Shown here one piece after another: positions 24,757 to 28,613 of a stretch of 64,000 bases of DNA. The DNA lies in assembly GCA_004524445.1 (NCBI GenBank), contig SDNP01000014.1, positions 9,013 through 73,012 on the forward strand, written 5' to 3'. The notes beneath the pieces are model-generated. The model was not told the origin of the DNA. It worked only from the letters and a program-made list of their open reading frames with translations, and did not search any database. The position numbers were made by a program, and so were the translations under genes. Origin of the DNA: Candidatus Thorarchaeota archaeon. Its GTDB lineage: Archaea; Asgardarchaeota; Thorarchaeia; Thorarchaeales; Thorarchaeaceae. The first letter of the stretch is position 1, and each line of letters opens with the position of its first letter.

Positions 24757-25269
24757 ATGGATGCGATAACCCTGCGAGTGTTTGCCGTTTCCGGATTTTC
24801 TGGCACTGGGAAGACATCGTTGATTGAGGACCTGATTAAGGAGCTTAAGTCGCGAGGTTACTCAGTTTCGGTGGTAAAAAGTTCGAGAGAGGACATTGAA
24901 CCTCCAAAGGGTACAGATACATATCGACACCTCACAGCATCAGCGAGTCCCGTTGTCCTTCTCGGACCAAATACCACAACTATCAGATATCAGCACAGAT
25001 TGAATTCAGGGGCGATATTCTCGCAAGTTGATGCAGACATAGTTTTGCTAGAAGGCTTCAAATCAGCTCTTATTCCGCGCGTGTTCTGCGTGGGCAAACG
25101 CGGCCTCAATGAAGACACTATCCCAGAACAAACACATGCCATAGTAACTTGGAATAGGACAGATATGAAAAAACATAGTGAAATTCCAATCCTCTATACA
25201 AGAGAGACTGACAGGATCGCGGATTTAATCCTACAGAATGCGGTCCAACCGAATCAAGTAGATTTCTAA
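24757..25269 (+). CDS. mobB: Molybdopterin-guanine dinucleotide biosynthesis protein B
   Basis: GFSGTGKTSLIE P-loop, GTDTYRH, DIVLLEGFK. Confidence 0.9.
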   Translation: MDAITLRVFAVSGFSGTGKTSLIEDLIKELKSRGYSVSVVKSSREDIEPPKGTDTYRHLTASASPVVLLGPNTTTIRYQHRLNSGAIFSQVDADIVLLEGFKSALIPRVFCVGKRGLNEDTIPEQTHAIVTWNRTDMKKHSEIPILYTRETDRIADLILQNAVQPNQVDF

Positions 25270-25623: not shown

Positions 25624-26616
25624 ATGTTAACCGCCAAAATCGGAATAATTGGGATTGGCAACATGGGCCGGATTCATGCGCGAATACTGAGTAGTCTTGA
25701 TTCTCTTGCAGGTGTAACGGATATAGACTTTGAAAATGCAAAGACAGTCGCAGAGAATTACGATGTGATGGCATACGAGGATTATAATCACATGCTTGAT
25801 GAGCTAGCGCTTGACGGGGTGATAGTTTCCACCCCTACTTCAACTCATGCAGACATAGCTACTGAAGTTGTGAACAATCATAACCTGAAGGGGATAATGA
25901 TTGAGAAACCCTTGGCTAGTACTCTTATCGAAGGAGAGCAATTAATGAAATCCATCAGGAAGAAGGGGATGGGAGGAGTTGTTTGCCATTCTGAAATATA
26001 CAATCCAGTTGTTGATCGTGCCTTGGCAATGATTGGAGAAGGCGCCATTGGAGAAACCAAAGTGGCAATTCACGATCGTCGAGGATTTGTGCACCCGTCA
26101 AGGATTCCATCGCTAGGCGACGTATTCGAGGACTTGGGAGTACATGATTTCGATATTATGGCAAGGATGAACACGGGTCCTGCAAAAGTCTATGCACAAG
26201 GCAATCTAAGCGAGGGGGTATACAATTCAGGAACGGTCCTAGTGAAATTCAAGGATGGCGTACAGCATTCATTTCATCTCTCTAGAGAATACGCGGGCAG
26301 AAGCCGATCTATGGATGTTTCTGGAACGAAGGGAGCATTGGTGTTAGATTTATTGGGCCAAATAATCAAGGTGAAGGACTTGGATCAAGAACCTTCGGCA
26401 GGCGATAGAACAATAAGATTGCCAGAGCGCGGTGCCACCATCAAGGTGTATGGAGAGCCAATTCTTGAAGCAATCAAAGATTTCATTCGTGTCATAAAGA
26501 CAGGTTCGGAACCGATTGTAGGTTTAGAAGATGGGATTAATGCCCTTAGAGTAGTTGAGGCGGCACGAGAAAGTGCTAAGACTGGCGATGTGATTGACCT
26601 CAAGATACACGGCTAG
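25624..26616 (+). CDS. Gfo/Idh/MocA family oxidoreductase
   Basis: GIIGIGNMG, STPTSTH, EKPLA and DLGVHDFD motifs. Confidence 0.92.
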   Translation: MLTAKIGIIGIGNMGRIHARILSSLDSLAGVTDIDFENAKTVAENYDVMAYEDYNHMLDELALDGVIVSTPTSTHADIATEVVNNHNLKGIMIEKPLASTLIEGEQLMKSIRKKGMGGVVCHSEIYNPVVDRALAMIGEGAIGETKVAIHDRRGFVHPSRIPSLGDVFEDLGVHDFDIMARMNTGPAKVYAQGNLSEGVYNSGTVLVKFKDGVQHSFHLSREYAGRSRSMDVSGTKGALVLDLLGQIIKVKDLDQEPSAGDRTIRLPERGATIKVYGEPILEAIKDFIRVIKTGSEPIVGLEDGINALRVVEAARESAKTGDVIDLKIHG

Positions 26617-28189
26617 TCCGCTCGCTCAAGAGATGGGATTTGGTGGCAGAAATAATCCTAACATCTAGCTTTGTGCCAATGGGAATCTCAGATTTTAGGA
26701 TGATGGGTTTGTAAGAAAAATTGCGGGCCATCATACCACCTGTAGATCCCTTCTCAGTCACGATTGCCTGTCCTTCCCATCCGACCCAATCCTTGTTTAT
26801 TGATGCTGTCAATCGGTTTACGTATTTTGACAACTTCCTGCTTCTGTTTTTTTTCACTGTTGTGTCTGTTTTCTGGTCAGATTTAGAAGCCAATGTACCT
26901 GGTCGGTCGCCATACTTGGATATATTCACCAGGGTTGGCCGTGTTTCTTTAATCAACTCCATGGTCTTATCAAAGTCTTTGTCTGATTCTCCCGGAAAGC
27001 CAACTATGATATCAGTTGCAATAGTCGCCATGGGAAACCTGTTGCGAATGCTTTCAATCACTTTCACCCAATCTTCAACCACATAGCGCCTGCGCATAAG
27101 CCGTAGAATGTCATTGCTTCCTGATTGAATTGGAATATGGAAGAACTGGAAGAAGTGGCTTGATGTCATTGTATCTAGCAGGTCTGGTAGATATCCCTTG
27201 ACCGCATTGGGGTTGAACATGCCCAATCTGAATCGATGTGTCCCTTGTATTTCATCTAGTGCACTAAGAAGCTGGGGAAGCGTTTCAGAAGTATCAAATC
27301 CATAAACACCGGTGTCTTGACCTGTCAATCGAATCTCCTTATAGCCAAGATGAACACATCTCTTTGCAATATCCATTATTTCGGAGATTGGATAACTGTT
27401 CAACTCCTCGCGGGCAAATTTCACTGCACAATAGGCACACTCACCGATACAACCCTCAGCTATCGGGATTGTACAAATGACTGACTGAGGTGGGCCCTCA
27501 AAGTATTGGAGTTTAGATTCCGAATCCGATGATAGATGTTCTATACCTCTCTCACCCCTCAGGATTCTATTGAGAATTTCAGGTAGAGTAGTGATACACT
27601 GAGGCCCAACAATGGCCCCGAAATTAGGTATTGCACGTCGTACTCTATTCAAGGAGATTTTTGGAAGACATCCCGCTACTACAACAGGAAGAGAAAGCTC
27701 GGCTAATTCACTTAGGCGATAGATGATACGGTCCTCAGTCGGTTCCTTGACTCCGCATGTATTCACAATCATGATATCAGCGAGTTCGGGGTCCGAGACC
27801 CTTTTTGCACCCAATCGATTCAGATGGCCGGCTATTAGGTCGGAGTCAGCAGTATTTAAGGCACAGCCGTAGGTTTCCAAATAATACTTGATATCCACTG
27901 GAATCGCACTCCCCCCCTGGATGTGAGGGAGAATTGTGATGGTGTCCCCCTCATTCACCGGCGTATTCCATCCATCTAGTCGACCAATTTCTTTTCTATT
28001 CAACAGAATAATGAGATTGCCACTAATGCCGTCTGAATTCATAATTAGACGACGAACTCTCTTACCGTATCGCTTTGCCATGTCATGAATAACATAACCA
28101 ACAGAAGATTCGGGTGGTACATCCACCGCTATGGTCTTCGAACCTATCTCTCGCCTGATAGGACCGAAGAATTTGATATTCACTTTCAT
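26600..28189 (-). CDS. Fusion of an N-terminal MoaD/SAMP/Urm1-like ubiquitin-fold domain (aa 1-93, ending IQGG) with an archaeal MtaB/CDKAL1-like tRNA methylthiotransferase
   Basis: MKVNIKFFG...NEGDTITILPHIQGG, then ETYGCALN, NTCGVK, AGCLP, CIGECAYC, DIIVGFPGE and a TRAM domain. Confidence 0.9.
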   Translation of the reverse strand: MKVNIKFFGPIRREIGSKTIAVDVPPESSVGYVIHDMAKRYGKRVRRLIMNSDGISGNLIILLNRKEIGRLDGWNTPVNEGDTITILPHIQGGSAIPVDIKYYLETYGCALNTADSDLIAGHLNRLGAKRVSDPELADIMIVNTCGVKEPTEDRIIYRLSELAELSLPVVVAGCLPKISLNRVRRAIPNFGAIVGPQCITTLPEILNRILRGERGIEHLSSDSESKLQYFEGPPQSVICTIPIAEGCIGECAYCAVKFAREELNSYPISEIMDIAKRCVHLGYKEIRLTGQDTGVYGFDTSETLPQLLSALDEIQGTHRFRLGMFNPNAVKGYLPDLLDTMTSSHFFQFFHIPIQSGSNDILRLMRRRYVVEDWVKVIESIRNRFPMATIATDIIVGFPGESDKDFDKTMELIKETRPTLVNISKYGDRPGTLASKSDQKTDTTVKKNRSRKLSKYVNRLTASINKDWVGWEGQAIVTEKGSTGGMMARNFSYKPIILKSEIPIGTKLDVRIISATKSHLLSERTSRVS

Positions 28190-28220
28190 AATGGTACCCG
28201 GATGTTATCATGCATTCGTT

Positions 28221-28613
28221 CTATTCGGATTCTTGATACTTCTCGATTAGCTCGTCAACCATTGATTCTACAATGGAAATAATCTTCTCGATAAGCTCCC
28301 AGGAGGCATCTTCTACATGAATACCAACGGCAACGACAACAGTTACTTCAAGTGCTTCGGATAGTTTCTCTGCAGCAGAATTTGCCAGTACATAGTCTTT
28401 GTGACCCGGGGACGTTATGGTATTCACGCTTATTGTGGTAGCGTCTCTATAATGGCTTTTTGTGGGGTAGGCCAGGGCGACACCGCCAATATGAGATTCA
28501 TCGCCGCCATAGATTCGAACAAGTATGTCTTTGCCCACCCTTTCACTCTGGAGTATCATCTCATGCGAGTTGGCATTTCTACGAATCACAATTGGATTCA
28601 TATCAGTCTTCAT
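28221..28613 (-). CDS. LpdD-like / proteasome-assembly-chaperone-4-fold small protein
   Basis: IYGGDESHIGGVALA, PGHKD and VVAVGIHVEDA motifs. Confidence 0.7.
   Translation of the reverse strand: MKTDMNPIVIRRNANSHEMILQSERVGKDILVRIYGGDESHIGGVALAYPTKSHYRDATTISVNTITSPGHKDYVLANSAAEKLSEALEVTVVVAVGIHVEDASWELIEKIISIVESMVDELIEKYQESE

Follow-up and report, generated by a model that had tools for sequence, protein, structure and literature searches.

A MoaD/SAMP1-type ubiquitin-like domain encoded in one reading frame with a predicted e-MtaB/CDKAL1-type methylthiotransferase in a genus of Thorarchaeota

Eukaryotic ubiquitin-ribosomal protein and polyubiquitin precursors are head-to-tail fusions that need cleavage after a Gly-Gly (GG) motif, and in the TtuB-TtuA and Urm1/SAMP2-Ncs6/NcsA relays the thiocarboxylate of a ubiquitin-like protein (Ubl) delivers sulfur to the cluster of a 2-thiouridine synthase. 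To our knowledge, no Ubl-type sulfur donor is known for any methylthiotransferase (MTTase). In prokaryotes, the MoaD-MoaE fusion MoaX of M. tuberculosis requires cleavage for its activity (PMC4326299), the Deinococcus DrMoaD-MoaE fusion is cut by DRJAMM (PMC8832034), and HvJAMM1 frees active subunits from covalent SAMP1-MoaE of Haloferax (PMC4443979). The present work concerns a single open reading frame (ORF) in a 64,000-nucleotide stretch of a Candidatus Thorarchaeota archaeon genome (assembly GCA_004524445.1, contig SDNP01000014.1, positions 9,013 to 73,012; hereafter the window), in which a Ubl of the MoaD/SAMP1 type continues through an internal GG into a predicted MTTase. The fusion is real and inherited, both of its halves are under equal purifying selection, and the resulting chain might be a linear precursor cut after the GG.

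Archaeal members of the e-MtaB/CDKAL1 family, the ms2t6A37 synthases, have been studied (PMC10702137), and MTTases are known to build the methylthio group on an auxiliary cluster (summarised in the same source), with in vitro work, archaeal enzymes included, simply supplying sulfide (PMC10702137). For the resupply of radical-SAM MTTases such as MiaB, RimO, MtaB and human CDKAL1 with sulfur after each turnover, a conserved and translationally coupled Ubl-mtaB pair, fused in one genus, offers a concrete and testable candidate donor as well as a natural single-polypeptide construct. A role of sulfur carriers in methylthiolation was suggested in 2010 from the neighbourhood of ThiS and TRAM genes by Makarova and Koonin (PMC2948915), who described ThiS beside stand-alone TRAM genes in Pyrococci, ThiS beside PAC2 in Thermoplasma and a fusion of a Ubl to Cgi121 (KEOPS, t6A) in Thaumarchaea.

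Anatomy and authenticity of the fused reading frame

The fused gene consists of the following features, given in window coordinates:

26600-28189, reverse strand: whole fused ORF, 529 amino acids plus a TGA stop, a single frame with no internal stop, likewise fused in the sister species G001
27911-28189, reverse strand: Ubl domain, residues 1-93, an archaeal MoaD/SAMP1-type beta-grasp ending in LPHIQGG (PF02597, TIGR01687, PDB profile matches and model confidence)
27911-27917, reverse strand: run of seven G containing the two Gly codons (GGG GGG at 27911-27916)
27890-27910, reverse strand: linker, residues 94-100 (SAIPVDI), at the place of the stop codon and intergenic spacer of relatives
27896-27898, reverse strand: in-frame GTG, codon 98, a candidate internal start 10 nt past GGGGAG
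27605-27889, reverse strand: MTTase N-terminal domain UPF0004, residues 101-195, with auxiliary-cluster Cys109, Cys145 and Cys174 (Pfam match and motif reading)
26951-27469, reverse strand: Radical SAM core, residues 241-413, with C247xxxC251xxC254 (Pfam match and motif reading)
26630-26767, reverse strand: TRAM-like C-terminal beta domain, residues 475-520 (Pfam TRAM below cut-off, TIGR01578 alignment and modelled strands)

The junction peptide of the fused protein reads …LPHIQGGSAIPVDIK. On its N-terminal side, the Pfam ThiS profile (PF02597) is matched over its full length (1-76 of 76) by residues 5-93 with 36 bits against a cut-off of 22.5, and the match stops exactly at G92-G93. NCBIfam TIGR01687 (moaD_arch) reaches 57.1 bits against a cut-off of 49.5, and the SAMP1 equivalog NF041918 with 48.8 bits lies under its cut-off of 60, such that the domain is SAMP1-like without being filed as SAMP1. 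A profile of the Ubl domain and its relatives matches the MoaD/SAMP1-type structures 2m19, Ta0895 (2g1e) and the Methanosarcina SAMP1 homologue 2l52 with E values from 1e-17 to 1e-14. The GG at residues 92-93 is not the chain terminus but is followed by 436 further residues, and a free GG in the fused protein would need proteolysis. The remainder of the chain matches TIGR01578 (archaeal/eukaryotic MtaB, e-MtaB/CDKAL1 type) over residues 101-521 (384.7 bits, cut-off 314.7), its six cluster cysteines (C109, C145, C174, C247, C251 and C254) are all invariant in the alignment, and its closest homologues are labelled Thorarchaeota or Promethearchaeota by their sources. Judged by these profile and motif matches, the fused protein is predicted to be a complete MoaD/SAMP1-type Ubl, a seven-residue linker and an intact e-MtaB/CDKAL1-type radical-SAM MTTase. 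An initial annotation made from the nucleotide sequence had already read a single Ubl-MTTase ORF here, with a beta-grasp of residues 1-93 ending in GG, and both statements hold. So does its MtaB anatomy as regards the three auxiliary cysteines, the CxxxCxxC motif and the UPF0004 and Radical_SAM domains; the TRAM domain that it also named reaches only 16.3 bits in Pfam against a cut-off of 21, with the TIGR01578 alignment extending to residue 521 and strands modelled over residues 472-524.

The predicted model of the fused chain (AlphaFold) has a mean per-residue confidence (pLDDT) of 88.4 and a predicted template modelling score (pTM) of 0.76. Its Ubl part shows the beta-grasp pattern of secondary structure with pLDDT block means of 73-89, and residues 91-97 are the sole segment with pLDDT below 50, so that in the model the GG-linker junction looks like an exposed tether. 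A complex prediction of the Ubl against MtaB with two 4Fe-4S clusters returned a score of 0.00, which is no answer and counts neither for nor against binding.

Since a homopolymer lies exactly at the GG codons, the fusion could in principle be an assembly or sequencing error in the G run that masks a stop. The window's genome (G000, 90% complete) has one congener in the genome set, the species G001 (84% protein identity), which encodes a fused ORF of the same 529 residues with the junction GGA GGC AAT CAG, that is, without any G run. Removal or addition of one G in the run of the window would give tails of 17 or 21 residues, respectively, and in neither case a GG followed by a stop, in agreement with what had been claimed initially. 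Mapping across the junction is provided by a contig from an independent freshwater-sediment study of 2025 (run X2), which spans 27400-27949 with seven substitutions, of which only V98L and I100L change the junction, and with no indel and no stop after GG. Thus, because G001 shares the fusion with different junction DNA, independent contig sequence carries no indel and a shift by one G yields no stop, the chance of an artefact is negligible; it is refuted for practical purposes, and the fusion is a genuine, inherited one. One salt-lake metatranscriptome (run X4) contributes two contigs of 151 nt and 2x coverage, each with two differences, which match the Ubl part (27944-28094) and the upstream gene (28217-28367); they do not cross the Ubl-MtaB junction and are too thin for a claim of expression, and give a faint hint of a close relative transcribed in a different habitat.

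Origin of the fusion and its genomic context

In 22 other genomes of the window's family examined at the junction (23 when counting G024, which lacks mtaB), the Ubl ends in LPHVQGG followed by a stop codon, and the start of mtaB lies 3-30 nt beyond it in the same direction. Of these 23 relatives, 17 have TAG as the stop, and the GGAGG of the Gly codons, often together with an AGGTGA spanning the TAG, is placed as the ribosome-binding site (Shine-Dalgarno) of mtaB. By this arrangement the GG and stop codons that form the mtaB Shine-Dalgarno show a tight translational coupling of the two genes. Read-through of the TAG, for instance by pyrrolysine insertion, was considered and rejected, since the excess of TAG is explained by the AGGTGA site and the share of relatives with both genes in frame, about one third, is that expected by chance.

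Among the 46 family genomes with mtaB, a long mtaB open frame (534 codons) is found only in the two genomes of the genus, and the others have 430-460 codons. In five relatives the Ubl and mtaB ORFs are in frame with one stop between them, and hence the fusion is one substitution away; as an alignment device only, these five were read through their single stop and used to anchor a mixed alignment of fused and split sequences. In a quick MtaB tree the genus is one deep branch inside the family, with SH-aLRT support of 100 for the genus and 99 for the family. As relatives outside the genus carry Ubl, stop and mtaB as separate genes, the fusion is by sequence comparison derived: the common ancestor of the genus lost the stop codon within what had been a unit of two genes, and the joined frame is not an ancient Asgard design. 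The initial annotation had cautioned that two genes in all relatives would mark a strain-specific stop loss. Outside the genus the relatives do carry two genes, which makes the loss lineage-specific, but it is no strain accident, as two species have it fixed and selection acts on it.

The two fused species stand at a synonymous divergence (dS) of about 0.76. The ratio of nonsynonymous to synonymous change (omega) between them amounts to 0.119 in the Ubl domain and 0.105 in MtaB, but to about 0.74 in the seven linker codons, and only two of the seven linker residues are identical between the window and G001. All three fused lineages retain the GG together with the LPHIQGG strand, and the seven residues that follow drift. 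Both halves have thus been under equal purifying selection since the fusion, and the linker drifts. An omega of 0.119 in the fused state means that the Ubl is still functionally constrained; it has a role that constrains its sequence, GG included, and the former intergenic stretch is nearly free.

Upstream of the fused ORF lies one further gene of the unit:

28221-28613, reverse strand: PAC_bac/LpdD-like gene, 130 amino acids, 31 nt before the Ubl start and overlapping gcvPB (PF21758, 109.8 bits; weak similarity of the protein to LpdD structures, 8p4w, E = 0.006)

Within the family, gcvPB, the PAC_bac/LpdD-like gene, the Ubl gene, mtaB and a convergent GFO-type oxidoreductase gene form one syntenic block, and because the whole block is syntenic, conservation of the Ubl-mtaB pair inside the family says little by itself. 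Regions upstream of mtaB were sampled from 200 genomes of the phylum. A MoaD-like Ubl gene lies directly upstream of mtaB in three further families, namely f7 (three genomes), f19 (two) and f10 (one, with a gap of 329 nt), and in family f4 the two genes share a strand at a distance of 2.2 kb. The pair of f7 and f19 is accompanied upstream by a divergent gene for a cobW-like GTPase and not by PAC_bac, and an FtsZ gene was seen just downstream of the pair in f7 and f10 (L026:3419-4570; L028:3621-4766); with these neighbours in f7, f10 and f19, the pair has a second context that is conserved. Among metagenomic Ubl cluster representatives, two of the seven sampled stand directly before mtaB, and the others adjoin an ABC-type ATPase, PGK, an AOR fragment or unassigned genes. 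As far as gene order can tell, the Ubl-mtaB pair is a unit common to different contexts, with a patchy distribution. Unlinked MoaD-like genes of other genomes score equally high (about 80 bits), such that the mtaB-linked Ubls of other families are candidate orthologues of the window's type. As to the fusion itself, for which a survey of Asgard orthologues had been proposed, it recurs in G001, and in the other genomes examined the genes are adjacent and separate or form no adjacent pair. A different extension was noticed in family f25, in which MtaB (frames of 541 and 539 codons) bears about 100 N-terminal residues with no Pfam match that are not a Ubl (L043:911-1240, G113; L044:1155-1500, G162).

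The window's genome encodes seven ThiS-family ORFs. A family-specific profile gives the fused Ubl 121 bits and the next protein, a generic SAMP1-like one ending in FPPVGGG, 63 bits, and no second copy of the locus-type Ubl is found in the genus. The neighbourhoods of the remaining six ThiS-family genes point to no clear division of labour, except that one is divergent from, and next to, an E1 gene. Two ThiF-type E1 genes (PF00899, 249 and 221 bits) and one JAMM are present, the latter a 137-residue Prok-JAB protein (62.9 bits) whose metal motif, E26 with H84-S-H86...S93..D96, is intact; PF01398 JAB was not found in this genome, and the Prok-JAB type of JAMM occurs in 39 of 41 family genomes. 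The E1 genes lie on contig 6 (73998-74690) and contig 53 (30224-30928) of the genome, and the JAMM on contig 8 (30453-30776). MoaE (PF02391) was found neither in the window's genome nor in G001 and is present in 11 of the 41 family genomes, and as the locus Ubl is universal in the family, it is not a molybdopterin-synthase subunit. In this genome, where no MoaE was found, an ORF read from its sequence as a MobB-like P-loop protein lies at 24757-25269 on the forward strand of the window, some 1.3 kb away from the fused gene. Of 25 family Ubls, seven carry 1-7 residues past the GG, that of the mtaB-less G024 among them, and about 15% of the nearest 150 Ubl clusters have tails as well; such tails fit a trimming activity and may be incidental.

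Proposed processing and competing explanations

In the proposed mechanism the 529-residue chain would be a linear precursor, whose flexible junction (QGG followed by SAIPV) would be cut after Gly93 by the stand-alone JAMM, thereby yielding equal amounts (1:1) of MtaB and of a Ubl whose Gly-Gly is free. More speculatively, one of the two ThiF-type E1s would adenylate and thiocarboxylate the freed Ubl, which might then donate sulfur to MtaB at the iron site left open in the auxiliary [4Fe-4S] cluster, where the sulfur would be methylated and moved to t6A37 to give ms2t6A. Since an internal GG can be neither adenylated nor thiocarboxylated, canonical Ubl function in this genus needs cleavage, and by analogy with known precursors we infer that a linear precursor cut after Gly93 is the best reading of the ORF. 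The initial annotation had offered two explanations, of which the JAMM-processed precursor is kept as the better one, in view of the one JAMM, the two E1s, the disordered junction, the tails past GG in 7 of 25 relatives and the known cleaved MoaD-MoaE fusions. The other, a tethered sulfur relay, is unworkable as written, for a GG inside the chain lacks the carboxylate that would have to be thiocarboxylated. The step of sulfur donation, which by itself is conceivable but rather doubtful, draws on the gene pairing, the translational coupling and the fusion, together with the analogy to TtuB-TtuA and Urm1-Ncs6. Taken as a whole, the chain of events from a JAMM-cut precursor to sulfur donation by the Ubl to MtaB falls a little short of what we would call probable. 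Its generalised form is put forward tentatively: in several Asgard lineages, the thiocarboxylate of a dedicated MoaD-type Ubl might be the physiological source of sulfur from which the auxiliary cluster of e-MtaB/CDKAL1-type enzymes is recharged, with one zymogen-like precursor split by JAMM in the window's genus.

Several observations weigh against a tie between the Ubl and MtaB, and would suit a tolerated read-through, in which the Ubl is a general SAMP-type modifier or a partner of the PAC_bac/LpdD-like protein that merely shares an operon with mtaB, and in which the stop loss was costless owing to trimming by JAMM and the fusion drifted to fixation. The PAC_bac gene precedes the Ubl gene in every family genome examined, including those without mtaB, so the Ubl is linked to it as constantly as to mtaB within the family, and part of the Ubl-mtaB adjacency is inherited gene order; the unrelated gcvPB belongs to the operon as well. 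The PAC_bac/LpdD-like protein is thus a possible alternative partner of the Ubl, a view also favoured by the ThiS-PAC2 neighbourhoods of Thermoplasma (PMC2948915). In genus g10, two species (G024, locus L083, and G147, locus L084) share a clean deletion of mtaB at about 1776-1825, with 48 nt left between the Ubl gene and the convergent GFO gene, and mtaB was not found elsewhere in either genome (83-85% complete). Their Ubl is intact, with an omega of 0.155 and a QGGT-stop end, and since it is kept under selection without mtaB, the Ubl has at least one role independent of MtaB. Moreover, no Ubl was found upstream of mtaB in the sampled genomes of 15 other Asgard families, and Thermococcus kodakarensis devoid of all three of its Ubls retains unchanged levels of ms2t6A and ms2hn6A (PMC11323500). 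If JAMM trims anything past the GG, a read-through fusion is near neutral whatever lies downstream, and hence the fusion alone is weak Rosetta stone evidence; the variable tails of relatives and the five in-frame relatives one mutation away agree with such an origin. On the other hand, it is the Ubl-mtaB pair and not PAC_bac that recurs in other families and contexts, the Shine-Dalgarno of mtaB is made of the GG and stop codons of the Ubl gene, and the locus Ubl is a distinct paralogue beside the generic SAMP1-like protein. A tolerated read-through is accordingly rated as conceivable but rather doubtful.

It is unlikely that the fusion works uncut, with the Ubl serving MtaB in cis, be it in folding, solubility, docking or regulation, for example in an inhibitory "permanently SAMPylated" form, and with its GG chemically unused. 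Such a state has a counterpart in the inactive, regulated covalent SAMP1-MoaE of Haloferax (PMC4443979) and would agree with selection on the Ubl domain in the fused state and with the whole-chain pTM, but it does not account for a GG and LPHIQGG strand held constant in three fused lineages beside seven drifting residues. The genus also has no second copy of the Ubl to provide a free GG, the relatives keep the free form, and the junction is predicted to be disordered and not packed. Quite improbable is the synthesis of two products from one mRNA, with MtaB made mainly from the internal GTG by use of the GGGGAG left over from the old Shine-Dalgarno, and the fusion as a minor by-product. The initial annotation had pointed to this GTG; an in-frame GTG after GGGGAG does exist, but at 27898-27896, one base off the 27899 given, with a spacing of 10 nt, and it is not conserved in G001. 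The strain of run X2 has TTG, a still usable start, at codon 98, and the same region is the mtaB ribosome-binding site in split relatives; yet G001 has no ATG, GTG or TTG between the GG and codon 104, which leaves the start unconserved in the genus, and the cell would be left without free Ubl although the Ubl is under selection.

Comparison with described systems

When residues 1-100 were compared by words with 5.8 billion proteins, the window's protein and its sister were the only ones returned. A profile search run exhaustively against 1.84 billion cluster representatives gave no other long protein among the best 150 Ubl clusters. A search of the ESM Atlas with residues 1-200 gave only MTTase N-domain fragments, below 0.8, and is uninformative on other fusions. 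Two cluster representatives from the profile search (P0174, 195 residues; P0183, 210 residues) contain tandem MoaD-like Ubl-Ubl in a polyubiquitin-like head-to-tail layout. Full-text literature searches found no paper on a Ubl linked or fused to an MTTase. What is new here is the fusion, its signature of selection and the counter-example of mtaB loss, and what is of a known kind is the linear Ubl-enzyme precursor, to whose short prokaryotic list this locus would be a non-MoaE addition in the archaeal group closest to eukaryotes. Even if mere operon hitch-hiking were the case, the locus would still show that these archaea have a C-terminal processing of MoaD-type Ubls robust enough to tolerate a tail of 436 residues.

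The closest likeness is to the MoaD-MoaE fusions, with which the window's protein shares a MoaD-family Ubl N-terminal to an enzyme, a GG at the junction, a stand-alone JAMM in the genome, a restriction to one lineage and an origin from adjacent genes. It differs in that the partner is a radical-SAM MTTase in a genome in which MoaE was not found, and in that cleavage is here a proposal. From the eukaryotic ubiquitin precursors it takes the layout of a Ubl made as a head-to-tail fusion, but the Ubl is of the MoaD/ThiS class and not ubiquitin, and a fusion of recent date, confined to one genus, gives no evidence for an ancestral link with the layout seen in eukaryotes. The archaeal contexts described in PMC2948915 resemble the locus in placing Ubl genes beside genes for tRNA-A37 modification and proteasome-chaperone-like proteins; here, unlike there, the neighbour is the MTTase itself, fused in one genus. 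With e-MtaB/CDKAL1 (TIGR01578) the protein has in common a full-length match above cut-off and both cluster motifs intact, from which formation of ms2t6A37 is predicted, and it departs from that family in its N-terminal Ubl domain. As in the relays of TtuB-TtuA and Urm1/SAMP2-Ncs6/NcsA (reviewed in PMC5372739 and PMC8584467), sulfur would come from a thiocarboxylated Ubl, the product of a ThiF-type E1, and would reach a tRNA-modifying enzyme at a [4Fe-4S] cluster that has a free iron site. The difference is that this cluster would be the auxiliary one of an MTTase, and the chemistry the methylthiolation of C2 of A37.

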